A stretch of DNA of 64,000 nucleotides, from IMG/VR virus record IMGVR_UViG_3300040770_000293, positions 20,449-84,448 of that record; one strand, written 5' to 3'. The position numbers were made by a program, and so were the translations under genes. Shown piece by piece: positions 34,713 to 56,305 of this stretch. Under the pieces are notes generated by a model that saw only the letters and a program-made list of their open reading frames with translations, searched no databases and was not told where the DNA came from. Source of the DNA: a virus. The number at the start of each line of letters is the position of its first letter. Position 1 is the stretch's first letter.

Positions 34713-37700
34713 CTATTTCTTATCTTCCTTGTCTTCTGATAATAGGTAAGCTGGAGTGAAATACATAAATGTACCTGAATTTAAAATGTATTGATCTTTT
34801 ACTCGTTGCACGTTTTTGAGGTTAAAATATTCCTTGACCAATCCCGTATTGCGTCCCCAATACCTAAGATTTTTTGTAGCTCCAGTCCATTTACCACTTG
34901 AAACTATTTCATCGCTTCCGATATCTGTTACAGCTAATACATCAGGGATAACATTTAAGCCAACAAAACTTGATTCCACAACTTCGTAATATGTTGCTGG
35001 TAAAGCTACACCTACAGATGCCGTTTCATTTGTTAATCTGAGCATTAGATAATTTGCAGCCTGTATTAAAAAAACGTCTTTATTTTCTTCGTCATCAGCT
35101 AATTTAGCTAGTAAAATACTTAACCCTGCTATAAGGTTTAACATTATAAAATCTTTACCATTACGTTGCATGTTCATTTTAGCATTAACATCATCTTGAG
35201 TAAATTCTGCCCAATAGGTTTTTATATCCTTACCTAAATTCTTTACGTCGTCCTTAGTAAACTGTTCAAAATAACCTTTAACAAATCTCCCTAAAGTTCT
35301 GTAAGAGCCTTCTTCAACTTGTCCTGACATTAAAGAAGTATGTTTATTTTTAAATCTCCTTGCTGTGGCTATCGGAATGAAGGATCTGTGAACGGTAAGT
35401 AACTGTAAAAATAGGTTACGAGCCGAAATGCTCTTCTCTTCTTCAGGCATTTGACCATCTATATTCTGAACTGCATAACTAATTCTTTGATAGATTGCTT
35501 CGTTTTTAAGCTTTAAATACTTTTCTAAGTCTTCTCCAGATCTGTTTAATAAGCCCTCCATTTTAGCTTTGTCATAATTAAACTTTCCATCATCTGTAAG
35601 CATAAAATTATACATGGTATTTTGCTCATTTGCATTCCAAGTGTTTTTAAGCTCTAGACTTGATAATGTTGGGTTAGCTTTTTTAAACTCGTTAAAGTTT
35701 TGAATACTCCCATTTACAATTCTGTAATCATACATTACGCTTAAAGCTATTCTAGGAATAACTGGAAAGTTACCCATAGAGTGTGTAGCATAAGGTAGTT
35801 TTACCATATTTCTCATAACCTTTCCAAAGGATGAGTTTTTCAATCTCTCTGCTTTATTATAAACTAAGAAATTTTCCAATAGTATATTTAACCTTGCTTT
35901 TGAATTTATTTCGCCCGTTTCTGCTATAGCTTTTCCTGCTAACTTTCTAAACTCTTTATTAGCCATCTTAGTGGAGGTCATATCTACATGCTCTCCTACT
36001 TTATTCTCCAAATAAAACTGACTTTGAGCTGTTATCCAGGATGTTGCTGGAGAAATAACTGCAAAACCTAAGTTTCTAAATCTTACAAATGTTGAAAATA
36101 TTCTTAAAAGTTTTGAAACATTTATATTGTAATTCTTAAAAAAGTTTATATTGTAATCAATATCTTCCTTAACTCCAAAATAGGCTTCATCCATGTGAGA
36201 ATTAAACATCTTTAAAGTTGCTGTAGCTGCAGCTTCTTTATTTGAATAAGTATCATTCAAAACAGAACTTTGCAACATTAAAGCTTGTCCTATATGCTCT
36301 TTCCTTGCTCTATATAACATACCTTGCTCATGCATCCAACTGTAGCTTGTTAGAAGTTCATCTGATAAGTCATCCTGATTGGCTAAATCTCTAAAGCCGT
36401 ATTTAGGTATAATTTTCATATCTTGGACCTTAAACTTTTCGCTTCCCTCTATAACTTCACCTGTTGCTATGTCTTCCTCTCTATAACCTACTGAATCTTT
36501 TATTCCCTCTCTAATTTTACCAAAAGAAGGTTGTTTTGCAAAGGCTTCCACTTTTCTAAGGCTTGACTTACTCTGTTGAGGTAGCTTAAATAAGTTGTGT
36601 TGATTTAAAGTGTCTGTTGCTTGTAAGGACTCTTTATGATAATCTAATAAGGCTTGTCTAGCTTTAAATAGTTTTTCATTTTTTGTTGCGTTTCTATTTT
36701 TATCTGGCGCAAAAAGATTTACATACTCTGAACTTTTAAAATCATTTCCCTTAAATTGATACCTTCCTCCTTCATAATTTTTAATGTATTTCTCATTTAA
36801 ATCTGTTCTTTCCTCTGCTTCAAAGAAACTATAATTTGGAGTTACAGTTAAAGGAGATTCTCCATTTGAAACTTCCTGTAATAGTTGAGAAACTTTTTTA
36901 GTCCCTTCTCCTAGTTCTTGAATTAAACTGTCATAACCTACAGGTGAAAATTTAGTGTAGTAGGGTAATAATTTTGTTTGAGAATATTTTACTAAATCTT
37001 TATAAACAGCTATTTGTCTTTCCTCTAAATCTTTAGGGTAGTTAGAACTAAAATGTTTTTCAAATTTTTTAGGTATATTCACCAATTGACCTTTAAGTAA
37101 CATATTTACAAATGTTTTAGCTGAATCTATGTCTGCTTTGCCATTTGAAGTTGTATGTTCTCTAATAAAATCAAGTTCCTGTATACCTCTTATTCCTAAA
37201 TCTTTTAAAGAATCTCTATAAGCTTGATTAACTGTATTCTCTGTTGTTTCTTCAACTTCTTCCTCGTTTTTTTCTTTCTTAAAAAATGTTGAGGCTTCTT
37301 GATATAGCAGTTGTAACTTCTCTGTATACTCTTTTATGTATTCTTTTTCAGATGTTGACATTCTCTCTACGTCTGTCTCTGAAGGTTGGTTTAAAACTCT
37401 ATTACCTTTAATTATATTATTTCTCTTACTTTGTAACTCTTTAATAGAAAAAATTAATTCTTCTGCTCTTTGCTGATTATCTCCTTCAACATTTGACAGT
37501 CTGTCCATTAAGCTTTCTTTACCCCCCAAACTATCCCAAAATTCTCTATTAAACCCTAAATAAGAGTTTAGTTTCAAGTAGTCAAAAGCTCCTTTAAAAT
37601 CTCCTTGGGCTTCTAATTTTTCTATTTCTTCTATAAACTTAGTTGGAATACCTTGTTTATCTTTTTTATTGTCTTGCAGATCTTTCAAGAAAATTTTATC

Positions 37701-40259: not shown

Positions 40260-40266
40260 TTATCTT

Positions 40267-40701: not shown

Positions 40702-40718
40702 ATATATTTATTTTTTTA

Positions 40719-40750
40719 CAAATATAGAAAGAAAATTACAAACATTCAAA
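40719..40750 (-). promoter_or_regulatory. Bacteroidota sigma-A-type promoter
   Basis: TTTG-N20-TATATTTG on - strand. Confidence 0.7.
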
Positions 40751-43114
40751 ACTTTCTTCATTTATTTTTTGTTCCTCCGCTTTGGAGTAGTATTTTTCAA
40801 TTTTTACTGGTGGAACTTCATCTAATCTTTCTGCTCCATAGTTGTCTAAGTTTACACTTAAAACAGGTTGAGATACATTAAAAGTTTTATACTCAGATGT
40901 GTTTACAGGAACTTCTTCATAAAAACTATTACCCCCCTTTGTATCTACAAGTTCAAACACTCTGTCTTTAACTCTTATAAAATTATCTATACTGTTGTTT
41001 TTTACTATTGTAGTGTCTGTTATAAACTTATATTCTCCCTTTACTTTGTCCAAACTCATTGGGTTGTTAATATAATTTGTTCTATAGAAATCTCTAGTGT
41101 AATCGGAACTAGGTTTTTCTAAAGTTTTTAAGTTTGGTATTTGGTCTGTTAATAATGAATAGTTCTCTAAATCTTTAGCTTGCTTAATGTTTTTTTCGGC
41201 TAAATAGTCCTTAATTTTCTGAACTGTTATTGCGTCATCATTTACAAGTACTATTCCTCTCTCATTTATTGAAAAGTTACTATAGAACTCTTTATATTTT
41301 TCACTGTCTTTTATTTTTTCTTGCAAAAATTCTGAATAGAAGTCAGCTATAAAATCTGTTTTTAAATACTCTTCGTTCCCATCAAAAGCTTCAAAACTGT
41401 TAAACTCTTCTTGAAAATCTACGTTCTTTTTAAAAGTCATAGGATGTCCAAAAGCATATTTATTAATAACCATTTGTTGTAAAACAGTATTATCTAAAGA
41501 TACTGAGGGTACGTCTAATTTTGACACTTCATTCTCTATAAATCTTTTTATGTCGGCAACTATTAATTCTCTATTTTCAATATTTCTTAAAGTTTCAAGA
41601 TTTAGCTCTCCTGCTTGATTTGCTAAAGGAAATGCCTCTTTAGGTAATATATTTTCATTGTATTGAGAAATAGCATAAAGTTTATTATATAATGTGTCTA
41701 AATCTTCTTTTTCAATTTGTTGATATATATTTTCTGATACCTTTAATAATCCAAAATCATTAAAAAGAGTGTACTCTGAAAGTTTAGTTTTTAGAGATAT
41801 TAAGCTTTTATTTAAATTATTTTCAGAAACTACTTCAACCTTTGTTATAGGAATTACTTCTGTTTCAAATACTATTTGATGTTGCCCTATGAAGTCGTTG
41901 AAAGACTGCTCTGAAGGCTCTAAAAGCAATGTGTTTAGACTTTCTAAAAGGTCATATATTTCATCCCTACTTTTTGAAAACACTTTACTTGAAAGCCCTA
42001 CTATATCAACTCCTTGTTTAGCAGATTTAACCTCTATTTCTTTAATTAATTCTTTTACATCTTCAATATTTTCATAGTATAAATCTTGACCTAATTCATT
42101 AAGGTAAATTATGTCAGAAGATATAGAAAGGTTATCACTTAAATTTAAAGTCTGTTCTAGTTGTACTCTTATGTCATTTTGATTAACAGCAGTTAAAGTA
42201 TCACCTTCTATTTTCATTTGGGACATTCGTTTAAACTCTTGCATTTTTTCAAATAGTGTTTTACTTTCTGAAGAACTATTTAAATTTTCTTGAGGTAATG
42301 CATTTACTTTATCATGTATATCTTTTAACTCTCTTCTGCTATATTTTTTAGTGTTTCCTGTATCATATCCCCATTCGTTTATGTCATTACCATCCCACCA
42401 TAAGTCATTTAATTTTACCTCTTGCTCAATTATTTTGTAAGTTTTCTCTCCAAATCTTGCTTCTCCATGATTTTCAGCGTACCCTTTTGAAAAAGTCACC
42501 CAATCATAATCTTTAAGACTATCTAAATCAATGTCTAAAGGGATAGCTCTATATGATGTAATAGTTACATTATCTTTACCTGCTTTTAAAGCTCTTATTA
42601 CATTGCTTATAGCTGTAAAAGACTGCATACCCTCGTTGTTGTCATAACCATAGTATCTCGCCCCTACTTTAGGCTCAAAATAATCAGAAGGTTGGTTATG
42701 GAATCCATTAGCTACTTCCATTAATGAGAAGTCACCTCCTGTTTCTAGCTTTTCTTTTGTTAACCCCTCATCTTTACTTGGTGCTGAATGTCCATCTCTG
42801 AAATCAGACATAACTTCTACAAAATTTTCAAAATCAGAATTTTGTTTTGCTTTTTCATAGACTGAATCTAAATCGTTATCAAAAACTTCCTCTACAACAG
42901 TTTCTTTTTGTAGTATTTCTGGAATTTCTAAGATTATTTTTTCTAGTAAAGGTAGTTCTAATTCTGCTCTTAACCTATTAACTTTATCAATTATTTTATT
43001 TGCTTGTTCTGTTATAACTTCTTTTACAGATTGTGCCTCCTCTATACCTTGAGATACCTTTAATTCAAATTCATCCTGTAAAGATGTTCCTTGAAAACAT
43101 TTTATTTTTGACAT
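40736..43114 (-). CDS. Putative virion protein with ADP-ribosyltransferase-like domain (792 aa)
   Basis: HSAP...YRAIP...DWVTFS..YAENHG...DLWWDGNDINEWGY (R-S/T-E pattern). Confidence 0.6.
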   Translation of the reverse strand: MSKIKCFQGTSLQDEFELKVSQGIEEAQSVKEVITEQANKIIDKVNRLRAELELPLLEKIILEIPEILQKETVVEEVFDNDLDSVYEKAKQNSDFENFVEVMSDFRDGHSAPSKDEGLTKEKLETGGDFSLMEVANGFHNQPSDYFEPKVGARYYGYDNNEGMQSFTAISNVIRALKAGKDNVTITSYRAIPLDIDLDSLKDYDWVTFSKGYAENHGEARFGEKTYKIIEQEVKLNDLWWDGNDINEWGYDTGNTKKYSRRELKDIHDKVNALPQENLNSSSESKTLFEKMQEFKRMSQMKIEGDTLTAVNQNDIRVQLEQTLNLSDNLSISSDIIYLNELGQDLYYENIEDVKELIKEIEVKSAKQGVDIVGLSSKVFSKSRDEIYDLLESLNTLLLEPSEQSFNDFIGQHQIVFETEVIPITKVEVVSENNLNKSLISLKTKLSEYTLFNDFGLLKVSENIYQQIEKEDLDTLYNKLYAISQYNENILPKEAFPLANQAGELNLETLRNIENRELIVADIKRFIENEVSKLDVPSVSLDNTVLQQMVINKYAFGHPMTFKKNVDFQEEFNSFEAFDGNEEYLKTDFIADFYSEFLQEKIKDSEKYKEFYSNFSINERGIVLVNDDAITVQKIKDYLAEKNIKQAKDLENYSLLTDQIPNLKTLEKPSSDYTRDFYRTNYINNPMSLDKVKGEYKFITDTTIVKNNSIDNFIRVKDRVFELVDTKGGNSFYEEVPVNTSEYKTFNVSQPVLSVNLDNYGAERLDEVPPVKIEKYYSKAEEQKINEESFECL

Positions 43115-43359
43115 TGTAAAAATATTTTTATCATTGTTAACATTTCATCATCTTCTCGAATTATTTTTTCATATAAGATGTTTTTTTCTATGTTCTGTAC
43201 AAACTTTTTACTGTGAGTGGTAGAACCTTTTATTACAGTTGGTTTTACAGGAATTCCCTGAGCCATAATAACCATTAAACCTAAAGTAGAATAAGTTAAA
43301 GCCTTTTTAACACTCTTACTTATTCTACCTCTTGTGGCTATGGATATGGGACTAATCAT
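43102..43359 (-). CDS. Hypothetical protein
   Basis: Overlaps both neighbours. Confidence 0.6.
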   Translation of the reverse strand: MISPISIATRGRISKSVKKALTYSTLGLMVIMAQGIPVKPTVIKGSTTHSKKFVQNIEKNILYEKIIREDDEMLTMIKIFLQCQK

Positions 43360-44656
43360 TTCTTGTAAATGTTGTTGAAGTTTCTCCGTCTCCTGTAATG
43401 TCTATAGTGATACTTCCTACTGAAATTTCATTAGCTGTAGTTGTGGCTGGATTTTCTGAATCAAGTCCTCCTACTTTATGAAGTTCATCTATTTTAGTTG
43501 TTTGATCTATGGCGTTTTGATTACTCCAAACATTAATTGGTATAGTTTCTAAAGCTAGTAAATGATTACCTTTTTCAGTCATTGTTCCATTATTATATAA
43601 AGTTCCATATCCTTCTAAATAATACTCTCCTCCTGTACAAGTAGTATCAATTTCTACTTCCCCACCTCTTAGATTAAATTCAGCTAGAGATCCTACAATA
43701 GCATTTTTTAATTTAAAATATCCTGAATCTACATCTAATGAAACAGTTGATGGTTGACTTAACATATTTATAGTTGTTAAATCTCCTTCAAAAACAATGC
43801 CTGTACCACTCATATTTCCTCCAGGTTTTATACTAATATCTCCCTCTAATATACAATTTGTGAGATTAGTATTTGCATAAACTCCTGATTTTAAACTACT
43901 GTTAGTTGCTCTTAAATCCACGTCCACAGAATCGTATATCTCACAATCCACAGCTTGTGCTGTAGACCCTTGTTTAAAAACACCAGTTACTGCTAAGTTA
44001 GTAGCTTTACAATCTGTTACTAGTACATTATTAAATGTAAGTGTGTATTTTCTATTTCCCGTTTCTCCTATAATATCTAATCCATTAAGTATCCCATCTG
44101 GAATTCCAACTAAATTTAGATCACTACGTAAATATATCTTCTTAAATCCCCTAGCAAGTCTTATAGCATAAGAATTTGAAGTTGTTTTACAAGGGTATAA
44201 AGGTGTTCCAAATGGATATGTCGAACTATTTGTACCATTTACTGCATCTATAGTAACTCCTCCATTGTAAGAAGCGTACTCTATTTCAGGTAATTGTTGT
44301 ACAGTACTATCTACTAAATTTGAAACTGAACTTAAAATAGTTACATTAAAAGCTCCTAAAACAGGTGCGTAAGGGCTTGACCCATCTTCCGAATATAGAT
44401 TACCATTAACTGTTAAAACTTGACTTTCTTCAAAAGGTTTTATTTTCCAACCATTAATCATAAAATAACTAATTCCTAATTCTTTAGCTCCTGGCAGTGG
44501 GTCTCCTCCAACGTTCCTCATAGCTAATAAGTATTTAGAATTATCTGAAGTTAATAACCATTCAATATATCTGCTCCACAAATCTCTAACATCAACAGTT
44601 ATTGTGCTTACATCAAAAGTTATTATTTTAGTTATTCCATTAAAGATATACGCCAT
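43352..44656 (-). CDS. Putative tail-associated structural protein
   Basis: Beta-rich; FMINGWKIKP...VLTVNGNLY N-terminal domain. Confidence 0.5.
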   Translation of the reverse strand: MAYIFNGITKIITFDVSTITVDVRDLWSRYIEWLLTSDNSKYLLAMRNVGGDPLPGAKELGISYFMINGWKIKPFEESQVLTVNGNLYSEDGSSPYAPVLGAFNVTILSSVSNLVDSTVQQLPEIEYASYNGGVTIDAVNGTNSSTYPFGTPLYPCKTTSNSYAIRLARGFKKIYLRSDLNLVGIPDGILNGLDIIGETGNRKYTLTFNNVLVTDCKATNLAVTGVFKQGSTAQAVDCEIYDSVDVDLRATNSSLKSGVYANTNLTNCILEGDISIKPGGNMSGTGIVFEGDLTTINMLSQPSTVSLDVDSGYFKLKNAIVGSLAEFNLRGGEVEIDTTCTGGEYYLEGYGTLYNNGTMTEKGNHLLALETIPINVWSNQNAIDQTTKIDELHKVGGLDSENPATTTANEISVGSITIDITGDGETSTTFTRND

Positions 44657-44672
44657 TTATTTGGTTTTATTA

Positions 44673-44694
44673 AAGGGGTGGGCTAACACCCCTT
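44673..44694 (-). terminator. GC-rich intergenic hairpin (weak terminator or stabiliser)
   Basis: AAGGGGTG/CACCCCTT 8-bp stem, short T-tract. Confidence 0.45.
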
Positions 44695-44702
44695 GATTTA
44701 TT

Positions 44703-46055
44703 TTAAGCTAAAAATGCACGATCATTTTCTGCAACTAAAGAGATACCTTGACCTGTTGCTCTAGTTATAGTATAATTTGTTACAACTGGTTTTGCACTTC
44801 CTGCATTACCTGCAACTACTGTTACTTGTGCATCTGTTGCTGCTGTACGACCTCCTTGTATATTTGAATCATAAGCAAAACTAAAAGGTATTGAAGAGCT
44901 TGAAATAGTTCCAAATATACCTGCTCCTAAAGCGTTATTAACTGTAATTGCTCCAGACAACCCGTAATCTGCGACACCTGCTAAATCTGTAAAATACATT
45001 CTGTAATATCCTGTACCACCTAATGTAAGAAAAGAATTAAAGTTTAACGTTCCTGTTGCTGTAAAAGGCTCAGTTCTTTCTATTCCATTTTTATCTTTAA
45101 ATACAAGTCTGTTTACATCGTTAGTGTTGTAGTTATCAATATAAACACCTGTTGTAGTTATTAAAGTATCTCCGACAAAGTTTAACAGCAAACTTGCTGT
45201 TTTACCTGTAACTGATCCAACTCCATTATCTATATCCCCTGATTGTCTTAGTAGATACTGTATTTTAGTATATATTTGTTCTGCTGTTGCATTTGCACCA
45301 TTAATAATAGTTCTAAAAGGGTAAGATACTCCTCCAATTGTTCTATTTTGGTCTGTTGCAAAATATTCAACATTAATCGTGGTGTAAGGTGTGTTAGCAA
45401 TTACTGTCGCATCCGAAGCTTGTATTTTTAAATCATCTTCATTAGATAGAAGTAAATTTACAATATTAGCTCCTGTACTTGTTTTACCCGTGTCTGCAAG
45501 AACAGAGTCTTTATACTTTTTACCTTGTTCTCTTACATACCCCTTAAAAAAAGTACGATTATCAAAATTACCATTAGTAATATCTCCAAAAACTTGAATA
45601 CCTTCATTTACTTCATCTACAAAAGTAAAATTAGAAGATGTTCCATTTAAAATTTTTTGATAGTATAGTTGAGCTCCTGTACTTACTTCTCCCAAAGATA
45701 CAATACCTACATATTGTCTAAGTAAAGAACCTGAAGCTGAAAATTCAGACCAACCACCATCTCTAATCATTTGTCTAGTTGCATCATTAGATGGTTTCCA
45801 TCCGTTAAATGTTTGACCATTTGTACCTATTTGGAATTGTCCTGATAATGCATCAATGGCGTAAAATCCAAATTCAAATTTATTATAGGCTGTTGTTTCC
45901 CAAAGTTGTATAAATTTTGAGTAAAGTGCTTGAAAAGATACACCATCTTTTGCTACAAGATTTCCAGCTACATTTAAAGTAAATGTTTTTGCTGTTGTGT
46001 CAATTGTTAATTCTGTTCCAACATTTAGTTGCGAAGGGCTAATTATTTTAGGCAT
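44703..46055 (-). CDS. Putative tail-associated structural protein
   Basis: Thr/Gly-rich beta protein; GVSFQALYSKFIQLW. Confidence 0.5.
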   Translation of the reverse strand: MPKIISPSQLNVGTELTIDTTAKTFTLNVAGNLVAKDGVSFQALYSKFIQLWETTAYNKFEFGFYAIDALSGQFQIGTNGQTFNGWKPSNDATRQMIRDGGWSEFSASGSLLRQYVGIVSLGEVSTGAQLYYQKILNGTSSNFTFVDEVNEGIQVFGDITNGNFDNRTFFKGYVREQGKKYKDSVLADTGKTSTGANIVNLLLSNEDDLKIQASDATVIANTPYTTINVEYFATDQNRTIGGVSYPFRTIINGANATAEQIYTKIQYLLRQSGDIDNGVGSVTGKTASLLLNFVGDTLITTTGVYIDNYNTNDVNRLVFKDKNGIERTEPFTATGTLNFNSFLTLGGTGYYRMYFTDLAGVADYGLSGAITVNNALGAGIFGTISSSSIPFSFAYDSNIQGGRTAATDAQVTVVAGNAGSAKPVVTNYTITRATGQGISLVAENDRAFLA

Positions 46056-46701
46056 TTTTATTTATTTTTGTTTTATAATATTCAATTGTCTCTTTTTCAA
46101 ATTCTACTCTGCATTCTCCTGCTAATTTTTCAGCCATACCTCCTAAAATACTTATTGTAAAGGTTTTAGTTTTTATCTTACCATCAACATATATAAAAGC
46201 TTGAAAAGCATTGTCTTTTTTATTAAAACGAACGCCTTTTTTAGTGTTTACATATAAGTTATGTAACAATTTTCCTAATTTTTGCTTATAAATCGAACTT
46301 TGAGAGAGTTTTAAATTTTTTTTGGATGCTATTATTGCATTAATAGTCTCCACAGAACGTTTTTGAACTAAATTAGCAAGACGCATTTTTTGTTTTGTAG
46401 TATCAGATACAATATAGTTTAAACCTCCACATGTTAAATTATAACCATTAGGGCTCATCGTGTTTAATAACTCTATGTAATATTTTTCAAGCCTGTTTAA
46501 ATCTTCAATATCTATAATATTTTCATCAATTATCTCAAAAGTAAAGTTTTCTTTTTTATATTTTTGAATTGCAAAAGATATTGCTGATACGTTTTTCTTT
46601 GATTTCTTACAATGCTCTCTCCATCTTTGCTCGACTTTTTGTATGGTTTGCCCAATATAAGATTTATTGTTTGTTTTATTTGTAATTTTATATATTACCA
46701 T
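46048..46701 (-). CDS. GIY-YIG homing endonuclease
   Basis: MVIYKITNKTNNKSYIGQT...RWREH...E.YYI...NGYNL. Confidence 0.9.
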   Translation of the reverse strand: MVIYKITNKTNNKSYIGQTIQKVEQRWREHCKKSKKNVSAISFAIQKYKKENFTFEIIDENIIDIEDLNRLEKYYIELLNTMSPNGYNLTCGGLNYIVSDTTKQKMRLANLVQKRSVETINAIIASKKNLKLSQSSIYKQKLGKLLHNLYVNTKKGVRFNKKDNAFQAFIYVDGKIKTKTFTISILGGMAEKLAGECRVEFEKETIEYYKTKINKNA

Positions 46702-46703
46702 TA

Positions 46704-49256
46704 TTAAGTTATATAATTTCTATCTATTATTTGTGCTATTGGTAAAGTTGCGTTTGAAGATTGTAGTGTAAAATTTCTAATGTAAAATGGAACAAATCCT
46801 GCTTTTGATACAAAAATATCTACGTTGGTTGGCGTTTCATAAATGTAATCCCAAGTACTTACGCTATTTTGGTCGACTTGTCCTAAAACCGTATCCGTAC
46901 CTGCTTGCAGTATAACCACGTCTGAACCGTTAACTATTCCACTAAACGTTAGCTTAAATGTATCTAAAGGGTATTGAAAATCTTGAGAAGTTGTTGAACT
47001 TACTGTTGTTAAAAACACACTTGTTATTGCGGTTGCATTGGTAACAGAAGTGGTAATTTCTAACCTTAATTTAATTCCTACACTAGGGTTTATTGCTGTT
47101 TCTCCGCTTAACGCCGTAGCTAACGTTGTCGCTGTTAAAACTGCACTGAACGCTCCAAAACCTGCTCCTTTATCTATTTGATACCTATATGTATAGTTTG
47201 TTGCTGTTCCTCCTGCCATTATTAAAGCAGTATTCGTAAAGGAGTTGTGACCAATTATGTAACTAGGAGTTTCAAATAACACTTTATGTCCAATAATAGG
47301 CATGTACAAACTTCCCCCAGAAGTGAACGCTGCTCCATTTGTTAGTGTAACTTGTGTAGCTGTTTCTGCCGTAGGTTCGTTCATAAGAACCGCTATTCTA
47401 CCTGCTGTTGCTGAAGTAAAACAATTTAACCAATGTGTTCCATAAACAGATACTTGTCCACTTAATGCACCCGTACCTCCCATTCCTTTACGCTCCATGT
47501 TCAGAACCGCCATAACGTCGACGGCATCTGCGTAATCTCCAAATACATTTTCTTCTACAAGACCTTTTGAAGAGTTATCCCCTGTCATAATACCTGTTCT
47601 TGTGTTACTTACGTAAACTCGTTGAATTTTAGTGTCAAAACAAGCTGAAACTATTGTGTAAATTAAACCACAGTTATTTACTGTTCCCATACTTATTGGC
47701 ACAGCTCTTGTACCGATACTTCTAAGCTTGTTATTTGAACAACCTGTTGTCAATTGCAAAAGTCCCGTAAAAGGTTGCGTGTTCAAAACAGGCATTGTTA
47801 ATCCAGATATTTTACAGTTTATTGTATTCGTACTTAAACTCCATACGTAACCTGCTTGAGTTGCCAATGTGGTTCCCGAAATCGCTTCACAGTATATTGT
47901 GTTTGTTATTTGTATATTGTCACAAGTAGTAAATGTCATAGCTCCTTGTATAATCGTAGGAGTCGTCCAAGTACAATTTTTAATACGTGTGGCATTTACA
48001 GAAAACGTTGTTGCATTTGCTCTAATAACTCCCGCAACTATTTTATCTCTTACAAAATCAAATCCTGAGCAATCTGATAAAGTGTTTGTGTGCGCACCTG
48101 AAGCAGCCATAGAAACTCTTTGCCAAACACAGTCTGTAAATGTTCCTCCTGCAAAGCAAAAAGTCATTGTTAGTGGTGATGTAAGTAATGGAGTCGTTGG
48201 TTTGTTCCCAACTCCAACTTTGCTAAAAGTCATAGCGGTTGCTATTTCTGATAGAAATATTGAGTCTATAAATGAAGAGTCTGAAATATTTACGGCATAA
48301 GCTTGAGCGCATGATAAATACCAAGCGTAGGTTGATTTTGTAATATTCACAACTCCTCCACCTGTAGTAGTAAAATCATATCTTGTAGCTAATGTAGCAC
48401 TAGGTATTACGTTCGCTGTTCTTGCGGCAACGGTGCAATTCTCAAAAAATATATTCCCAACAACTACTTTTAACCCTGCTATTGGAGTAAAGCCGTTTGT
48501 AGCAGCACCAGAGTTTCCTATTCTCACAAGTCCCGTGGCGTCAATCCAAACTAGCTTTCCTCTAGTAGCTTCTGTACCTGTTGTTGTGTTTGTCCCGTTA
48601 TTCGGATAGAATTCAAAATCATTACTACCTACAGTTTTTTCTATGTAAACTCCACCACAATATCTTTGCAAACCGTTGTTAGGAATTTGCATAGTTTGGT
48701 TAGAAACTCCCGAAGTCGTACCTACTTCATACCAAGCACCATTAGAATTATAAACTCCTAAACGGTTAGCGTTTATAGTACTTGCTTCGTCACCAACGAT
48801 TTCTATCCATCCAATACGCCCTGCATCACCTGCAGTAGCTCCTATACCTGTTAAAGCTCCTGCTATGTACGTTCCTGTTTTTTGCTTAACTCTTAAAAAG
48901 CCTGTTGCGGGCATTACAGCACCCGAAGCCGTAGAAGCCGAAGCAAGTGTAGCATGAACTCCAATTAATTTACCACTTCCAGAACCATTACTAATAACTG
49001 TATTAAATGCGGGTACGTTTCCTGTTCCTGCTGTAAACGGAATCATCCATATAGCAGTACCGTCAATATTTACCACTCCACCCAAAGAAGCAGATAGAGT
49101 TATACTCCCTAAACTTGTAGAAGTCGTTTGGTTTAAACCTGTTCTACTGTCATTATCTATAGTTAATGTACCTCCATTTATTGCATAGGTATCACCACCA
49201 GTTTTTCCTGTAATTTGATCTATGTTTTGTGCCGTAGTTACTGTAAATGCTGCGAT
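46704..49256 (-). CDS. Putative tail fibre/spike-like beta-rich protein, probable ATC start (850 aa)
   Basis: Frame open 57 codons above the tracked TTG, to ATC-GCA-GCA-TTT (xAAFTVTTAQNIDQ) behind an AAAACCAATAA leader; in-frame TAA just upstream. Confidence 0.6.
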   Translation of the reverse strand: MAAFTVTTAQNIDQITGKTGGDTYAINGGTLTIDNDSRTGLNQTTSTSLGSITLSASLGGVVNIDGTAIWMIPFTAGTGNVPAFNTVISNGSGSGKLIGVHATLASASTASGAVMPATGFLRVKQKTGTYIAGALTGIGATAGDAGRIGWIEIVGDEASTINANRLGVYNSNGAWYEVGTTSGVSNQTMQIPNNGLQRYCGGVYIEKTVGSNDFEFYPNNGTNTTTGTEATRGKLVWIDATGLVRIGNSGAATNGFTPIAGLKVVVGNIFFENCTVAARTANVIPSATLATRYDFTTTGGGVVNITKSTYAWYLSCAQAYAVNISDSSFIDSIFLSEIATAMTFSKVGVGNKPTTPLLTSPLTMTFCFAGGTFTDCVWQRVSMAASGAHTNTLSDCSGFDFVRDKIVAGVIRANATTFSVNATRIKNCTWTTPTIIQGAMTFTTCDNIQITNTIYCEAISGTTLATQAGYVWSLSTNTINCKISGLTMPVLNTQPFTGLLQLTTGCSNNKLRSIGTRAVPISMGTVNNCGLIYTIVSACFDTKIQRVYVSNTRTGIMTGDNSSKGLVEENVFGDYADAVDVMAVLNMERKGMGGTGALSGQVSVYGTHWLNCFTSATAGRIAVLMNEPTAETATQVTLTNGAAFTSGGSLYMPIIGHKVLFETPSYIIGHNSFTNTALIMAGGTATNYTYRYQIDKGAGFGAFSAVLTATTLATALSGETAINPSVGIKLRLEITTSVTNATAITSVFLTTVSSTTSQDFQYPLDTFKLTFSGIVNGSDVVILQAGTDTVLGQVDQNSVSTWDYIYETPTNVDIFVSKAGFVPFYIRNFTLQSSNATLPIAQIIDRNYIT

Positions 49257-49279
49257 AAGGTTATTGGTTTTAGATTATT

Positions 49280-49684
49280 TTATCTTGCTGTGACTGTTTC
49301 TATAAATCCTTGAGTGTCTCTTTTTATGTCAAAAACCCAATTCTTTTTTTGCTCTTCTTTTTTTAAGAGAGGTTTTAATTCTTCTACGTCTAAAGTTACA
49401 GGACTATTTAAATTATTTTTTAATTCTGTAAGGTTTGTTTTAAACTCTTGAGTTAATTTTGCTAGTTCTCTAATAACTAAATCTTGATTGACTTCTACTA
49501 TTATATCTGCAGGAACTTCTTTATTTATCTCTTGAAGTTTTTCTATAAACTTTTCAAGTGTTTTTGTGTTAGCATCAACTATTTCAACTATACCTTTATT
49601 TACTGTATTTGTATTTGAAAGTAATGTCAGTATCTCTTGATGTCTTTTATCGTCAAGTGCTTGTTTAAAATCATCTAACTCCAT
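49280..49684 (-). CDS. Hypothetical protein
   Basis: C-terminal WVFDIKRDTQGFIETVTA. Confidence 0.65.
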   Translation of the reverse strand: MELDDFKQALDDKRHQEILTLLSNTNTVNKGIVEIVDANTKTLEKFIEKLQEINKEVPADIIVEVNQDLVIRELAKLTQEFKTNLTELKNNLNSPVTLDVEELKPLLKKEEQKKNWVFDIKRDTQGFIETVTAR

Positions 49685-51108
49685 GCGCAATTATTTAATT
49701 CTTCTAAATCTTGCCACTCTTTTTTTAACTTTTCTTGAGCTAATTTTATTCTTGTCATATCTTTAGAAGTTTTTGCGTTTGTTATTTCAGATACAGATAT
49801 TAAAGGTAACTTAATAAGTTCTAATTTACTTACTTCTGGCAAAGGTAATACTTCTTCTTCAATTATCCTAATTTCTTTTACAATTTTTTTAGGTAATTCT
49901 TTTTTTGGAGCTTCTACTTCTTTAGATTCAACTGTAGCTTGTTTTAAAACTTGTGGTAATTCTAAAGATTCTGCTTTACTTATGAACTCTTCTCTATCTT
50001 TAACCCCTCCTAATTCTTGTATTACGTTTTTTTCTGTTGCTAAAGGATTATTATTTACAAGCTTTCCTAAACTATTAATTGTTGATCGTTTTACTAGAAA
50101 GTCATTTGAAAAATAAGTTTCTTTTGTAAATACTTCATCTATGTTTCTTAGAGATTCAATTATATTTTTTATGCTTTTTTGTAATTCTCTATCTGTTTTT
50201 ATGTTTAAGATTTCATAACTTGTGTAAAAATCTTTTAACTTTTTTTCTTCGACTTTAAACTCTCCATTTTCATCATAGAAAGATTTTTCCAAAGCGTCTG
50301 CCATTTCTTGAGAGTCTTCAAAAGGTAAAGATAATAGTGAGTTTTTTATATCTTGTTTTTGCTCAAAACTTAGTTTTTTACCTTTAGCTTGCTCCCCTCT
50401 TAAATAATTAAATAATACTTGAGGTAAAACTTCCCCATTGCTATCGAAGTGACTGCTTGGAGTACTTTCTATTTTATTCCTACCATCTTCTCTTTTTACA
50501 ATTTTAGTAGACTTTAACTTATCCCACACTCCGTTTGCGGCAGGTGTTTGGTTTGCATCTGAATAGAAAGGTTTGTTTTGACTAATAACTTTTAATATTG
50601 CGTATTTATACATTTCTGTACCAATACCTTTACCTTGTAAACCTTCTATATTTCCCTGATTATAAACTTGAGCTGTACTTAAATTAGTGCTCTCTATAGC
50701 TAAACCATTTTTGTAAGGTTTCATTCTTACTTTACCTAACATTACATTTTCTTCTCCTGCTTTAACAAAAGCTTGTATAGTAGTAAATCCATTGACTTCT
50801 ACTGTTTTGTAAAGTAGGTTTTTAATGTCTGCAGAATACTCTTTACCCTTATGTAAAAGGTTTATAATACTGTTACTTGGTTGTAAAGTATCTAAATTTC
50901 TTTTTATAGCTGTTTTGTATTTACTTTTTAGAGGTGATATAACTTGTTCTACAAATTTTTCTGTATAAGTAAGAGCTACTAAATCAGCAGCTCTTTTCTC
51001 ATTTCTTACTTTATTTAGAACTTCTGGAAATAATTTAGACGTTTCTTCTTTCGGAGTTTGCGTCCCAACTATACTTCCATTATCTCCATATATTACTATA
51101 CAACTCAT
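49675..51108 (-). CDS. Putative virion protein with GNAT acetyltransferase domain (477 aa)
   Basis: LQGKGIGTEMY...FYSDANQTPAANGVW; N-terminus resembles that of the 1848-aa protein. Confidence 0.65.
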   Translation of the reverse strand: MSCIVIYGDNGSIVGTQTPKEETSKLFPEVLNKVRNEKRAADLVALTYTEKFVEQVISPLKSKYKTAIKRNLDTLQPSNSIINLLHKGKEYSADIKNLLYKTVEVNGFTTIQAFVKAGEENVMLGKVRMKPYKNGLAIESTNLSTAQVYNQGNIEGLQGKGIGTEMYKYAILKVISQNKPFYSDANQTPAANGVWDKLKSTKIVKREDGRNKIESTPSSHFDSNGEVLPQVLFNYLRGEQAKGKKLSFEQKQDIKNSLLSLPFEDSQEMADALEKSFYDENGEFKVEEKKLKDFYTSYEILNIKTDRELQKSIKNIIESLRNIDEVFTKETYFSNDFLVKRSTINSLGKLVNNNPLATEKNVIQELGGVKDREEFISKAESLELPQVLKQATVESKEVEAPKKELPKKIVKEIRIIEEEVLPLPEVSKLELIKLPLISVSEITNAKTSKDMTRIKLAQEKLKKEWQDLEELNNCAWS

Positions 51109-51124
51109 CTACTGCTATTTTTTA

Positions 51125-51156
51125 CAAATATATAATTAATTTTTAACTGTTGCAAA
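51125..51156 (-). promoter_or_regulatory. Bacteroidota sigma-A-type promoter
   Basis: TTTG-N20-TATATTTG on - strand. Confidence 0.75.
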
Positions 51157-51160
51157 TTAA

Positions 51161-54100
51161 TTAATCACAATCTGTTATATTTTCTACTTCTTCCAAATCT
51201 TCTGCGGGGATATTGTAATTTTCATCTCCCTCTATCAAATCGTCTATTTTATTTTGTAATTCAACTATTTCATCGTCAAGAATTTCAGTTTCTGCGTCTA
51301 ATTTAGCTAAAGCTAAGTCTCTAGACTTCTCTATTCTATAATACTCAGAAGCCTTTGCTCTTTTGTTTTGCAACACCTTTACTTGACTTTGATATATCTT
51401 TTCTATTTTATCAATTTTTTTGTCAATGGTCTCCTGTTTTTTTAAGATTTTAGCTATTTCCTTATTGTATTTTTCAACTTCTTGATTTACACTTTCATCC
51501 ACAACTTCTACTTCTGGAGCTATAAACCCTTCACCTGAATAGTTTGAAAAGTCTAAAACTAATTTAGGTGCAGTTATAGGTCTATATATTAAATTTATAG
51601 CTATTTGTGCTTGAGATATTAGTGAATTTTTATCATAATCTTTATCAGCCAAAGTTTCAACATTTATAAAGTCTTGAATACTATTCATAGCTTCTGCAAT
51701 ACTTCTTAGTTTTACAGGGTCTAAGCTTGTTAATTGAAATAGTTTAGGTTCTATGTTATTCTCTACAAGTTTTGCGTTAATTTTTTTTATTTTTTCCGCT
51801 TCAGACAACTGCTGATTATTAAATATATCCTCTACCTCACTACTTTTTTCTAATGTAGTTGTTACTAAACTTATAGGATATGCTACTTTAACACCTTTGT
51901 ACTCAAATACAATTACAGGTATTTTAGTAGTTTTATTCTTTTTAGACAATTTTGTAGTAAAATCAAATCTTACCCCTTTTTCATCTTTTGAAAGAAAGCT
52001 TTTACCATTTAAAACATAACCTGTATTTACCACCACTCCTAGACTTTCTTCTGTAAAGCCTACATTTAGAGGTTCATAACCCTGATCTGTTTGTTGAGTA
52101 TTCATATTTGGAAACCCTAAAACTATATTTTTAACTTGTACTTTTGAATTTAACTTAAATCCTATAGAACCATTATTAAGATTTTCTAGAACTGCTAAAT
52201 ATGCATTCTTTCTAACTTCTAAGAATTTGTTATCTGTTACTCCCTCTCCTATAGTGCTATGAGTTGCTTTCAAAGATCCTGAAATTTGATCTCCTTTTAA
52301 AGTTGTAAAGATAACTAAAGATTTTTCTACTTTTTCAGCTAACTCTTTACTTATTTTTTTACCTGATTTTCTAAGCTCTTCTATTAATGATGCATTATAT
52401 GGGTCGTCAAATCTAACTTCTAACTCTACATTTTCGCCTTCTGAAACTTCATAATTTGCTTCTTGATTGTAAGATATTGGAGATGATGGGGTAAAATCGG
52501 AAGGTACTTGAACTACTTCTTCTCCTGCTTTTTGATATACAGGTGAGTAAGTGCTATAAGTTAAATTTGAAGACAATGGTATTAAATTTAAAGTTTCTTT
52601 TACAATGTTGTAATCAGTTTCTTTTATAGATATTCTACCTCTATCTTCTATAGTAAATGTTGCTTCTCCAAAATTAAATTGTGTTCCTTTAACTTTTCCA
52701 AACTCTTGTACTAAGGCTTCTGTAGCTTGTCTACTTTGTCCATCTACTGTTATTATAATAGGTAGTACTTGTAATCTGTCTATAACTGTTCCTATGTTTA
52801 AATCACTAAATCTTACAGCATTTTCTTTATTTATAGTTACTATTTTAGCAGTAACATTATCATGAACTTGAGTGAAACTATTTTGAGTTACATCGTTAGA
52901 AGCTTGTACTTCATCTGTCTCATTTATAGTTACAAATTCTTGACTAGTAATATTATTTTTAGTGTCTTCTTGTTCAATTGAAATTTTCATTTGATTTAAT
53001 ATTTCAATTAAATCCGCTATACTTTCACTTTCTCCACTTACTGCTCCGTCAAGCATTCTCCATTGAGAAAGTTTTAGATTTAAGTTTTGAAATTTTACAA
53101 GTTCTTCTTTTGTTAAACCTATTTCAACTTTAGTATTTGAAGAAAAATTAGGGTTTACTCTTGTAGCAAAATCTTTATCTTTTCTTTTGCTATTATTAAT
53201 TTTTTCTAAATATTCTTCATACTCTTCTAATTCTTCTTGATTGGGTTGAGCATTAACAATGTCGTCATAACTTTCTCCTACATAAGTCATAGAGATACTG
53301 TTAGCTTCTATAGCATCTTCTATTCTTTTTACAAGCTGTTCTGTAGAAGATAATATAGGTTCTTCAGATTTTGGAGGTGTAACTTCTATAGTATCCTTTA
53401 TTGCGTCAATCTCCTCTTTATTACTGTCATAGACTTCTTTTTCTCTAGGTAATAAAGTTTCATTACTTTTAACTTTTTGCGAAATTTTAGTTAAAAGTTC
53501 CTCTGATACTTCTTTATTATCTTTAAAACTCTGATATTCTTCATTAGAAATGTCAGCATTTATTTCGTCTGCTTGCTCTTTTAAGTATGCATTTTTTACG
53601 TCATTATAATTTTTAATAGTGTCTATAAAAAACTCTTTAGTAAATTCGTCCATAGACTTTTTACCATTAATAATTTTTGAAAGAAAACTACTTTGATCTT
53701 TAGGTTTGTACTTAGGGTCAGAAAGTTTTTTAGCTGTATTGTCAAACTCTTTAAACTGCTCTACTGAACGGTTGTACTCCGAGATTAACTTGCTAATTTT
53801 TAAGTGTGCTGGTAAATTAGTTTCTTTTAAGTTTTCTACTAAATCATTTAAATCAGATAATCTTTTCTCTGTACTATCTAAATCTATAGAAGATACAGAT
53901 GTATCATCTTTTATAAAAGGATTTTCTACTTTAGCTGCTTTGAATAAAACATCTCTTTCTTGCTTAAGCTGAGCATACTCTTCTTCTAATTCTAATAATC
54001 TACTTGATACTTTAGTATATCTTTGATTATATGTTGTATTATCCTCTTTACTATTTTTATTTCTTTCTAAGCTTAAAAGTTCTTTATTTAAAGCTTCCCT

Positions 54101-56305
54101 TTTAGTATTTGAAGTTTTTATTCTTCTACTTACATTTTGATAAGTTTTCTTTGTTTTCTCACTTGAATTTAAGAGCACTCTATCTATATCTAAAGCATCT
54201 ACCAGTTCATTACTTTGAGTAAAGTTTCCAAGTATTTCTTTTTTAATACTTGTCAATAAATCAGTTTGTAATCCGCCTGTAACTTCTCCCATTGTGAGGT
54301 TATAAGTTAAAGCTTCAATAAGTACTGATTTATTTGTTAACCCTGCTTCGTTAGCTCCTACAAAAGTTCCTTTACCTATAATAGCTTCGGCAAACTGCCT
54401 GTTTTTTTCAAAGGATTCAGATAGTGTTTTATATTCTTCAACAGTATTTGTTTTGAACTGTTCTATGTTTTCCTCTTCTATTCCTGCCTCTTTAAACTGC
54501 TCTACAGACATTAAATTGATAGAGTCTTGCAAGTCTGAAATATCATCTTTAGAGTCTCTCTTAATGTTATAGTTGAAGTTGAGTCGGGAAAACATACTAT
54601 CATTTCTAGCTATTTCTCCGCCTACTATATCTCCTTTAGCGTCTGCCTCTGCTTTACGTTCATTAGCTCCCTGTATTTGATTAGTCATAGCTAATCTCTT
54701 AACAAATATATCTCCTGCAAATGTGTTTAATCCACTTGCATTGTATTCCATATCTTTTCTTTTGTTGTCAATATCTTTAGCTCCCCCGAATAAGTTTCCT
54801 GTTGCTGCTCCACCTATAAGTGTTGTTAAAGCTGCAGTTCCTAACTCTTTCCACCCTTCTTTAGTGCCATAAGTTTCTCCCATAGACTCATACACCATAC
54901 CCATCATGTCTAGATTTTCTGCTGTCTTTTTTGGATCGTAAGTACTATCTAACCATTTGTTAGCTGTTTTTGTAGTTACTCCTTGTAGTCCTTCTTCAAG
55001 TATAACTTCATTAAATAAATTGCTACTTACTCCATAAGCTTTCCCCGCAAAATTTTGAAATTTGGTAGCTTTTAAGGCTTGTACAACTTTCTTACCACCT
55101 ATTTCAACTGTTTGTGTACCTATTCCAAACAACCCTTTATTTACATCTTTAGATAGTGATTTTAAAGGATTTTTTATTCCAAATTGTCCTCCAAAAAATG
55201 CTAAGTTAGCTCCACCTACCAACAAATAGTTTGTAGCAAAAACTGCATTAGCAGAATTAGCTAAATCCTCTTCAAACTTACTAATTTCATCATCTGTAGG
55301 CTTTCTACCATTTAATGTTTCAAAGTTATTGTAGAAATTTTCTTTTGCTTCTTTTTTATAGTGCCAAGCTTCTATAGAGGCTTCTCCAGAAGCAGATGTT
55401 AATCCAAATCTTACAGTGTTTAATATTTCTCCTGCCTTGCTTCCTAATATAGCTCCTTCTCTGTTTATTACTCCCTTACTAGCTGTTGATTTTAAAGGTT
55501 GTTTTATAAACTGCTTCATTTTTTCTATTCCCGAAAGAGTCCTTTCTGCAACTATAGCCTCTTCTCCTACTCTAGCAGCTGTACCTAACTTAGATCCTAT
55601 TCTAGCTCCTTTTAGAGCCAAACTTGCTCCACCTGTAGCATAAGCCCATATTGCTTCAGAAGCTACCGTACCTAAAGTAAATGCTGTTCCTGCTAATACA
55701 TCATTAGCCCAGAAGTTAGCACTACCTAAACTATTTACAAACCCTGCATCTTTTTCTTGTTGAGTATAGTAATTTGGTAGTTTATAGTCTAATTTAGTGT
55801 TCCAATCATCAAGAGTTTTAGTAAAATCATTATCATAAACTGCTGAAATACTTCCTTGTTTAGCTGCTTCTATAAAACCATTAACAAAGCCCACTGTATT
55901 TCCTAATACAACATTACCTGTTTTTAAAACTAATTTTTCAAGTCCATTTATCCATTTATCAGAAGTGGATTGCCCTTGTGCTAGACGCTCTTCATTATTA
56001 GTTCCTTCTATATAATTTTCAAATTTAGATTGATAAGTATTATCATTTAATCTAATATATGTGTCTTCTATATTTACAGAGAACTCTTTTAATTTTAACC
56101 TATTATCTTTAAATGCATCTAAACTGTTAGGTTGATTTTCTTGTTGAAAGGAAGTTAAAAAGTCTGAATACCTAGGGCTACTTTTTAATCTTATATCCTC
56201 CGCAATTTGCTGAGTAGGTATGGGTTGAGCATTAGTATCGCTAGTTAAAAAGTTAGTTTGTCTTGGATTTGAGAGTCCTGAAAGGGGGTTTGTATTATCT
56301 AGCAT
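51161..56305 (-). CDS. Giant putative virion/ejection protein (1714 aa)
   Basis: Gly/Ala-rich hydrophobic helices in the N-terminal third, coiled coils, single Cys (C1713). Confidence 0.6.
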   Translation of the reverse strand: MLDNTNPLSGLSNPRQTNFLTSDTNAQPIPTQQIAEDIRLKSSPRYSDFLTSFQQENQPNSLDAFKDNRLKLKEFSVNIEDTYIRLNDNTYQSKFENYIEGTNNEERLAQGQSTSDKWINGLEKLVLKTGNVVLGNTVGFVNGFIEAAKQGSISAVYDNDFTKTLDDWNTKLDYKLPNYYTQQEKDAGFVNSLGSANFWANDVLAGTAFTLGTVASEAIWAYATGGASLALKGARIGSKLGTAARVGEEAIVAERTLSGIEKMKQFIKQPLKSTASKGVINREGAILGSKAGEILNTVRFGLTSASGEASIEAWHYKKEAKENFYNNFETLNGRKPTDDEISKFEEDLANSANAVFATNYLLVGGANLAFFGGQFGIKNPLKSLSKDVNKGLFGIGTQTVEIGGKKVVQALKATKFQNFAGKAYGVSSNLFNEVILEEGLQGVTTKTANKWLDSTYDPKKTAENLDMMGMVYESMGETYGTKEGWKELGTAALTTLIGGAATGNLFGGAKDIDNKRKDMEYNASGLNTFAGDIFVKRLAMTNQIQGANERKAEADAKGDIVGGEIARNDSMFSRLNFNYNIKRDSKDDISDLQDSINLMSVEQFKEAGIEEENIEQFKTNTVEEYKTLSESFEKNRQFAEAIIGKGTFVGANEAGLTNKSVLIEALTYNLTMGEVTGGLQTDLLTSIKKEILGNFTQSNELVDALDIDRVLLNSSEKTKKTYQNVSRRIKTSNTKREALNKELLSLERNKNSKEDNTTYNQRYTKVSSRLLELEEEYAQLKQERDVLFKAAKVENPFIKDDTSVSSIDLDSTEKRLSDLNDLVENLKETNLPAHLKISKLISEYNRSVEQFKEFDNTAKKLSDPKYKPKDQSSFLSKIINGKKSMDEFTKEFFIDTIKNYNDVKNAYLKEQADEINADISNEEYQSFKDNKEVSEELLTKISQKVKSNETLLPREKEVYDSNKEEIDAIKDTIEVTPPKSEEPILSSTEQLVKRIEDAIEANSISMTYVGESYDDIVNAQPNQEELEEYEEYLEKINNSKRKDKDFATRVNPNFSSNTKVEIGLTKEELVKFQNLNLKLSQWRMLDGAVSGESESIADLIEILNQMKISIEQEDTKNNITSQEFVTINETDEVQASNDVTQNSFTQVHDNVTAKIVTINKENAVRFSDLNIGTVIDRLQVLPIIITVDGQSRQATEALVQEFGKVKGTQFNFGEATFTIEDRGRISIKETDYNIVKETLNLIPLSSNLTYSTYSPVYQKAGEEVVQVPSDFTPSSPISYNQEANYEVSEGENVELEVRFDDPYNASLIEELRKSGKKISKELAEKVEKSLVIFTTLKGDQISGSLKATHSTIGEGVTDNKFLEVRKNAYLAVLENLNNGSIGFKLNSKVQVKNIVLGFPNMNTQQTDQGYEPLNVGFTEESLGVVVNTGYVLNGKSFLSKDEKGVRFDFTTKLSKKNKTTKIPVIVFEYKGVKVAYPISLVTTTLEKSSEVEDIFNNQQLSEAEKIKKINAKLVENNIEPKLFQLTSLDPVKLRSIAEAMNSIQDFINVETLADKDYDKNSLISQAQIAINLIYRPITAPKLVLDFSNYSGEGFIAPEVEVVDESVNQEVEKYNKEIAKILKKQETIDKKIDKIEKIYQSQVKVLQNKRAKASEYYRIEKSRDLALAKLDAETEILDDEIVELQNKIDDLIEGDENYNIPAEDLEEVENITDCD

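Follow-up and report, generated by a model that had tools for sequence, protein, structure and literature searches.

We analysed a 64,000-nucleotide stretch of viral DNA (IMG/VR record IMGVR_UViG_3300040770_000293, positions 20,449 to 84,448), hereafter the window, of which 32–64 kb is a minus-strand operon of very large genes with 30% G+C. It includes four genes for giant proteins, here named A, B-N, B-C and C, whose only cysteines sit within a few residues of their ends. A preliminary description of this DNA had proposed that these cysteines join the proteins head to tail through disulfide or metal bridges. The four genes and their cysteine codons are, in gene order:

51161..56305, minus strand: A, first member of the proposed chain, 1714 amino acids (aa), sole cysteine at the penultimate residue (C1713); phrog_32390, expect value (E) 1e-159
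51167..51169, minus strand: C1713 codon of A, TGT
49675..51108, minus strand: B-N, 477 aa, N-terminal half of a split middle protein, cysteines solely at 3 and 474
51100-51102 and 49687-49689, minus strand: C3 and C474 codons of B-N
40736..43114, minus strand: B-C, 792 aa, C-terminal half of the split middle protein plus an effector-type N-terminal region, cysteines solely at 6 and 791
43097-43099 and 40742-40744, minus strand: C6 and C791 codons of B-C
34713..40259, minus strand: C, last member of the proposed chain, 1848 aa, sole cysteine C3; phrog_37651, E 2.5e-230
40251-40253, minus strand: C3 codon of C

Upstream of these genes, or between them, lie features that we do not count as chain members:

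62212..63999, minus strand: C-terminal 593-595 codons of a cysteine-free 966-aa giant, cut by the window end, upstream of the chain
59258..62209, minus strand: 983-aa cysteine-free, predicted virion protein; phrog_36695, virion structural protein, E 3e-67
56306..59188, minus strand: 960-aa cysteine-free, predicted virion protein; phrog_32131, E 1.5e-31
43352..49690, minus strand: cassette between B-N and B-C, with open reading frames (ORFs) of 136, 793 (14 cysteines), 217 (GIY-YIG homing endonuclease), 450 and 434 aa
40267..40701, minus strand: 144-aa ORF with 3 internal cysteines, between B-C and C; phrog_12005

Translation of every ORF confirmed the cysteine count of the preliminary description: the four chain proteins contain 6 cysteines in 4831 residues, all of them terminal, and the 966-, 983- and 960-aa giants contain 0. 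Six of the seven large ORF sizes it had listed (983, 960, 1714, 477, 792 and 1848 aa) stand; the seventh, given as 593 aa, reflects the cut at the window end, and the full ORF, read from the 98.5 kb genome record (G000), encodes 966 aa and is still free of cysteine. It had also read the cysteines as three C-to-N pairs in gene order. They do face each other in this way, but the genes are not all neighbours, as five ORFs (three with 3-14 cysteines) separate the 477- and 792-aa genes and the 144-aa ORF separates the 792- and 1848-aa genes. The first member indeed carries a C-terminal cysteine only and the last an N-terminal cysteine only.

For a background we used G001, a complete relative that is 88% identical, 135.9 kb long and bounded by direct terminal repeats. 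Cysteine content is 0.086% inside the block versus 1.32% elsewhere; finding 6 cysteines in 7740 residues against this 1.32% background has a Poisson p of ~8e-36, and random placement of 6 cysteines in the four proteins, with all of them ≤6 residues from an end, has a p of ~1e-12. Within G001, the only cysteine-poor proteins with terminal cysteines are the four chain members, which together carry 3 N-terminal and 3 C-terminal cysteines, and cysteine-rich proteins of the same genome have terminal cysteines no more often than the background predicts. Chance or a gene-calling artefact is an explanation with practically no remaining weight: although mis-called starts are a general risk, the positions alone refute it at p ~1e-12, and the cysteines recur in >340 homologues with conserved N-terminal starts.

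We rejected one candidate for a further link, formed by the C-terminal cysteine of a cysteine-rich 1894-aa protein and the next protein, which starts 'MACNC...'; this C-terminal cysteine is kept in the 88% relative G001 and is absent in phi4:1 and in the seven more distant relatives checked. A cysteine-rich protein of ~310 aa starting MAC-x-C... follows a ~1900-2300-aa cysteine-containing giant upstream of the cysteine-free block in G000 (86564-93193), G001 and L013 (144-1067). It could be a metal-binding virion protein and lies outside the chain.

The A-B-C layout recurs in 12 other contigs or genomes, 23-57% identical, among them Cellulophaga phage phi4:1 and the human-gut phage csAssE-Sib; two of the 12 (L003 and L004) are cut upstream, and their first member is partly seen. 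Throughout, A has its cysteine at or next to the last residue, B has one at each end and C has one at position 3-6. In phi4:1, gp038 (1957 aa) has C1957, gp037 (517 aa) has C4 and C516, gp035 (1914 aa) has C3, and these proteins have no other cysteine; gp039 and gp040, the orthologues of the 960- and 983-aa proteins, and gp041 have none at all.

Conservation of the terminal cysteines in orthologues, which the preliminary description had named as a test of its idea, extends over >340 homologues, down to 21-35% identity. Sequences matching the first member fall into at least 321 clusters at 90% identity. This A family has a C-terminal cysteine in 119/120 proteins, an N-terminal cysteine in 0/120 and 2 internal cysteines in 207,825 residues. 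Its lone exception (P0162) has an in-frame stop followed by a 129-aa ORF that ends ...NCK. The C family has an N-terminal cysteine in 76/81 proteins, a C-terminal one in 0/81 and 19 internal cysteines in 171,849 residues; the 5 homologues without the cysteine look N-terminally truncated. Both terminal cysteines are present in 17/18 B proteins and in 127/146 additional 50%-cluster representatives, most of the others being fragments, and the B C-terminal-module profile finds 472 matches among 1.84 billion 50%-identity representatives. Internal cysteine across the A, B and C families amounts to 0.001-0.015% of residues.

Two records in this set have unusual gene structures. In L014 (12100-12420), an in-frame TAA interrupts the A gene 178 codons ahead of the normal end, the ~950-aa upstream gene is also in two pieces, and the downstream A piece still ends in cysteine; the interruption may be an assembly error, decay or read-through. 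In csAssE-Sib (L006 29458-35860), C is annotated as two overlapping coding sequences of 281 aa and 1885 aa in different frames, the 281-aa one holding the cysteine-capped N-terminal domain, which could reflect a frameshift error of the record or a genuine frameshift. B and C of this phage tolerate a few internal cysteines.

Rearrangements of the middle protein bear on what the cysteines do. The unsplit middle protein P0006 has 897 aa and cysteines solely at 3 and 896. Residues 1-395 of the 477-aa protein are 62% identical to P0006 1-395, and residues 268-792 of the 792-aa protein are 61% identical to P0006 377-897; the window lineage therefore has its middle protein in two pieces, with the cassette between them. 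Both new ends created by the split carry a cysteine (C474 and C6), at a place where P0006 has none. Fusion removes such a pair. P0294, a B-C fusion of 2380 aa with its sole cysteine at 3, has a B module that ends at profile position 226/259 and a C family part that begins at 105/1890, so that the last ~33 B and the first ~104 C positions, and with them both junction cysteines and both junction modules, are gone. The preceding A on the same contig retains its terminal cysteine. A peptide bond thus makes both cysteines and both modules dispensable.

Chain length and insertions follow the same rule. In chains of 2 (L023), 3 (the default) and 4 members (the window and G001), the number of N-terminal cysteines equals that of C-terminal cysteines and equals members minus 1. 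In P0234, P0241 and P0283, an insertion of ~170-280 residues separates the B module from the tail, and the cysteine is still at the very end. The terminal cysteines thus co-vary in orthologues, which the preliminary description had likewise named as a test: the split adds a pair, the fusion removes a pair together with the docking modules, and counts balance in 2-4-member chains. As far as sequence comparison can tell, these data call for a pairwise link from the C terminus of one protein to the N terminus of the next, and the chain idea is supported, having survived every comparative test run.

The same rearrangements speak against terminal cysteines that do not pair with each other and serve instead in attachment to the portal, the capsid or a host protein, in lipid or other modification, or as a redox sensor. 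Such roles would suit the unconserved flanks of the C-terminal cysteine in the A family, as for a bare chemical handle, and would sit comfortably with the weak co-folding support described below. They leave unexplained why an N-terminal cysteine occurs in none of the A proteins and a C-terminal one in none of the C proteins, and why cysteines were added at both split ends, though each half had one, and were both removed by fusion. We consider this explanation rather improbable.

For the chemistry of the link, the surroundings of the cysteines are informative. Nothing else is conserved around the C-terminal cysteine of A; the flanks in this family may be acidic or basic, at odds with the similar acidic helices that the preliminary description had seen before the C-terminal cysteines. 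Across the N-terminal 240 residues of C, C3 is invariant, V16, G21, S24 and L26 are nearly so and no others are. Alignments show no conserved His, Asp, Glu or second cysteine near either terminal cysteine, and His too is strongly depleted (0.2-1.1%) in the four chain proteins (34713-56305). The lack of a conserved accompanying ligand, together with this His depletion, makes a two-thiol bond more likely than a metal site. A disulfide would be the simplest link because there is one thiol per end, cysteines come in steps of two and other cysteines have been purged, in addition to the missing metal ligands and the scarcity of His.

A bridging metal ion of the zinc-clasp or zinc-hook type could nonetheless join the same ends. 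The default three-protein systems have four cysteines, which would make one Zn(Cys)4 site across three proteins, and such a site could form in the reducing cytoplasm in which the phage is assembled; no thiol oxidase was found, in a search that was uninformative. The number of cysteines, however, is 2 x (members minus 1), that is, 2 in L023, 4 in the default and 6 in the window, which fits pairs and not one tetrahedral site. Two-thiol sites are unusual for Zn, and neither the alignments nor the His content offers further ligands. We therefore regard a metal bridge as unlikely.

The N-terminal cysteine of C belongs to a recognizable domain. The first 170 residues of the 1848-aa protein are predicted to fold with a predicted local distance difference test score (pLDDT) >90, and Cys 3 lies just ahead of the first strand of a beta hairpin; a Foldseek search with this model against the PDB gave no match (best E 0.5). 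This connector domain is common to C, most B proteins and the 477-aa protein of the window, and is not present in the 792-aa protein. The N-terminal pattern that the preliminary description had seen in both the 477- and 1848-aa proteins is therefore genuine, the 1848-family N-terminal profile matching the 477-aa protein at E 1.4e-6. We also considered the tail of the 477-aa protein as a copy of the 1714-aa tail and rejected this as not significant, since 11/500 shuffles reach the score.

Co-folding of terminal pairs had been suggested in the preliminary description, and we carried it out for one junction, B/C, pairing the C-terminal 260 residues of B with the N-terminal 130 residues of C. The interaction prediction score from aligned errors (ipSAE) was 0.47 (runs 0.47, 0.47 and 0.54) versus 0.02 for the best control. 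Of solved complexes, 58/80 reach the mark, and of mismatched pairs 2/110. The three runs agreed in ≥37% of contacts and had a partner pLDDT ≥70; the tool graded this as weak support and returned no interface.

That B and C share the connector raises another arrangement of disulfides, either with A bonded to C and each middle protein closed from its N to its C terminus, or with mixed A-(B)n-C polymers capped by A and C. The B tail could dock on its own N-terminal domain, and, every two-cysteine protein having one cysteine per end, cysteine counts cannot separate the topologies. The fusion P0294, on the other hand, has lost the B tail and the C N-terminal subdomain, yet keeps the B N-terminal domain and Cys 3, which points to the B tail and the C N terminus as a functional pair. 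A closed loop could also pass the tail channel only as a hairpin, and the split B halves of the window would gain nothing from separate closure. We judge these other topologies to be improbable.

We propose that the giant proteins probably form an ordered, disulfide-linked train of ejected cargo, joined head to tail. Each junction would comprise one C-terminal cysteine, 0-3 residues from the end, and one N-terminal cysteine at position 3-6, the latter capping the conserved ~100-aa connector domain at most junctions. The C-terminal tail of one protein would dock onto the N-terminal end of the next, and the paired thiols would then form an intermolecular disulfide, either after particle assembly or outside the reducing cytoplasm; the purge of other cysteines would prevent wrong bonds. 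The result would be an almost unbranched thread of ~4,800 residues that runs from A through B-N and B-C to C. Because the bond lies few residues from the chain ends, leaving stubs of ≤6 residues, the product would be nearly unbranched, as a thread through the tail channel needs to be, and could traverse the narrow channel as a single strand in a set order. Once the disulfides are reduced in the host cytoplasm, each cargo protein would be released. We infer the disulfide chemistry, the pairing order, the ejection as a train and the release by reduction from the cysteine pattern and its behaviour across relatives.

Several points weigh against such a train. Phage assembly takes place in a reducing cytoplasm. 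Thioredoxin (PF00085) was not found in five genomes; thiol oxidase (PF04777, Erv1) had no match in the five either, but it had none in control genomes, which makes this search uninformative. The gut, where some relatives live, is anoxic. As B and C share the connector domain, sequence alone cannot fix which C terminus pairs with which N terminus, and B self-closure or mixed A-(B)n-C polymers fit the cysteine counts equally well. The 792-aa protein is without the connector domain, and its junction would operate differently. The predicted B/C contact, finally, is weak and comes without an interface.

What is known of the relatives suggests where these proteins act. With ~30% identity, the Lightbulbvirus isolates phi4:1 and phi17:2 (145 kb), both Cellulophaga phages, come nearest; phi4:1 infects Cellulophaga baltica. 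The phi4:1 orthologues gp035, gp037, gp038, gp039 and gp040 are annotated from tandem mass spectrometry (MS/MS) virion proteomics in the GenBank record, an annotation that pertains to phi4:1 and not to the window phage. PHROG calls the 983-, 960-, 792- and 1848-aa proteins virion structural proteins, and the profile matched by the 1714-aa protein (phrog_32390) carries no function label; the lengths of these profiles are those of the phi4:1 genes, and the gene order is the same as in phi4:1. The 792-aa protein B-C matches phrog_29175 (virion structural) and a ParB-C-terminal-like profile (residues 97-256, E 1e-18). In relatives, the operon begins with cysteine-free proteins that have SLT or lysozyme domains, and the positional equivalents of the 966-aa protein are cysteine-free and often have such domains. 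B and C family homologues carry ART-PolyVal, Kinase-PolyVal, LPD23 and MuF_C domains (PF18760, PF18762, PF18838 and PF18819; precomputed Pfam), and by its atlas features C lies close to LPD38, LPD39 and PLxRFG clusters, which serves as a lead only. Judged by family, operon context and cysteine suppression, the block is probably internal virion cargo, of the ejection or polyvalent kind, that is expelled into the host.

Direct database comparison of the window proteins gave few leads. Eight window proteins had no Pfam match above the cut-off, a megablast search of the A and 477-aa region against phage records had no match, and tblastn with the 477-aa protein gave a single weak partial match only. 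Conservation in the A family is highest in the N-terminal third, which has several Gly-rich hydrophobic stretches and many invariant Gly, Asn, Trp and Glu residues; this third matches nothing in Pfam or the PDB and may act on membranes or form a pore. A conserved ORF of 48-60 aa between A and B in relatives (L010 15094-15240, L012 14968-15150, L013 15685-15861 and L023 9053-9235), not in the window, might encode an assembly factor.

The cassette that separates the two B halves also holds a cysteine-rich fibre-like protein. In the 88% relative L002, the cassette ORFs are in the same order minus the homing endonuclease, and the last ORF has 185 aa versus 434. No cassette lies between A and B in the other relatives examined (phi4:1, L003, L007-L014, L023 and csAssE-Sib; L004 is cut upstream). 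The 217-aa GIY-YIG homing endonuclease (46048-46701, minus strand) is missing from L002/G001, where the neighbouring genes abut, and is probably a recent homing insertion. The 434-aa ORF (43352-44656, minus strand; 5 cysteines) resembles the 185-aa cysteine-free ORF of L002 (6603-7160), with identical N- and C-terminal residues, and the window copy appears to carry an inserted cysteine-containing domain.

The proposed cargo invites comparison with known ejection systems. As with the large internal proteins of T7 (gp14-16), N4 (gp50-52) and the N4-like Pseudomonas phage DEV (gp71-73), which are expelled via a short tail before or with the DNA, delivery here would run through the tail. T7 gp16 carries a lytic-transglycosylase- or lysozyme-type domain, and the operon of the window's relatives likewise includes lytic-transglycosylase or lysozyme domains. 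Homology of A and C to T7 gp14-16 or N4 gp50-52 was not detected by phmmer and family profiles against all PDB sequences, which returned coiled-coil noise only. Strong cysteine suppression is shared with the N4-like phages; in the ejection proteins of DEV and N4 it has been explained by passage through the periplasm (PMC11445570). In Schitoviridae, however, cysteine is reported to be essentially absent and no terminal cysteine rule is described (PMC11445570), and there is no detectable sequence homology to the proteins described here. Conserved terminal cysteine pairs are the new element relative to N4-like ejection proteins.

A further parallel comes from the crAss-like Cellulophaga baltica phage phi14:2, whose consecutive giants gp67, gp66 and gp65 (compare PhicrAss001 gp47/gp49/gp50) follow the identical terminal-cysteine rule: gp67 has only C1797, its last residue, gp66 only C3 and C2179, and gp65 only C3. 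This phage, too, has a Bacteroidota host, and the virion location of these proteins is proteomics-based in the records. Positions 1386-1852 of the C-family profile match gp65 residues 938-1403 (E 5.4e-35), with the N-terminal two thirds unmatched, and the A, B-module and N-terminal-domain profiles have no match to gp66 or gp67. The middle proteins differ, as gp66 of phi14:2 is the virion RNA polymerase ('catalytic RNA polymerase subunit') and the middle protein here is a variable, effector-type protein that is split in the window. We found no virion RNA polymerase in the block; the A- and C-family profiles have no PDB RNA-polymerase match, and no profile matches gp66. The shared rule and the gp65 homology make the window's lineage a second large phage group with the rule and with one chain member common to Crassvirales. 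In the region homologous to gp65, the 1848-aa protein has its single hydrophobic segment (residues 1703-1721; 1764-1782 in the phi4:1 counterpart gp035), which could be a membrane-inserting helix near the C terminus of C.

Virions of a gut crassvirus do contain intermolecular disulfides (PMC10172136). That crAss001 study reports them only for tail, collar and portal-vertex proteins, and the word 'cysteine' does not occur in it (PMC10172136). Polyvalent proteins are comparable to the giants described here, which are large and modular, probably packaged in the virion and presumably injected, and whose B and C family homologues carry effector and LPD domains. Each polyvalent protein, however, is one continuous polypeptide, presumably cleaved by peptidases that it carries itself, with no disulfide or terminal cysteine mentioned (Iyer, Burroughs, Anand, de Souza and Aravind 2017, PMC5512222), whereas here the string appears to be built from separate gene products via terminal cysteines. 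We found neither terminal cysteines nor disulfide-chained cargo mentioned in the crAss001 atlas, the DEV paper, the polyvalent-protein paper or full-text searches whose coverage excludes subscription-only papers.

Outside phages there are analogies only: end-joining disulfides build long linear multimers of von Willebrand factor and gel-forming mucins, and disulfide-linked A-B toxins are separated by cytosolic reduction. Von Willebrand factor and mucins are unrelated to the proteins described here; they use cysteine-rich terminal domains, are assembled in an oxidising secretory pathway and join head to head and tail to tail, unlike the single cysteines that would join these proteins head to tail.

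How megadaltons of protein pass the narrow tail of a short-tailed phage, and in what order, is an open question, for which the crAss001 structural study could propose partial unfolding only (PMC10172136). We see an even chance of an undescribed delivery principle common to two groups of large Bacteroidota phages, Crassvirales and the phi4:1/Lightbulbvirus-like group, in which separate giant cargo proteins are concatenated after translation via single end cysteines into a thread of 4,000-5,400 residues. This thread would be drawn through the tail in a set order and come apart once reduced in the host cytoplasm. The cysteine pair would then act as a reversible substitute for a peptide bond, leaving genes free to be split, fused and swapped. 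If true, a covalent head-to-tail thread would be a simple physical answer to the problems of ordering and traction. It would account for the restriction of cysteine to the ends of the proteins and for a middle unit that keeps its function when swapped, divided or fused. It would also provide a sequence rule for recognizing cargo sets in metagenomes: a giant protein free of cysteine except for one at its end.

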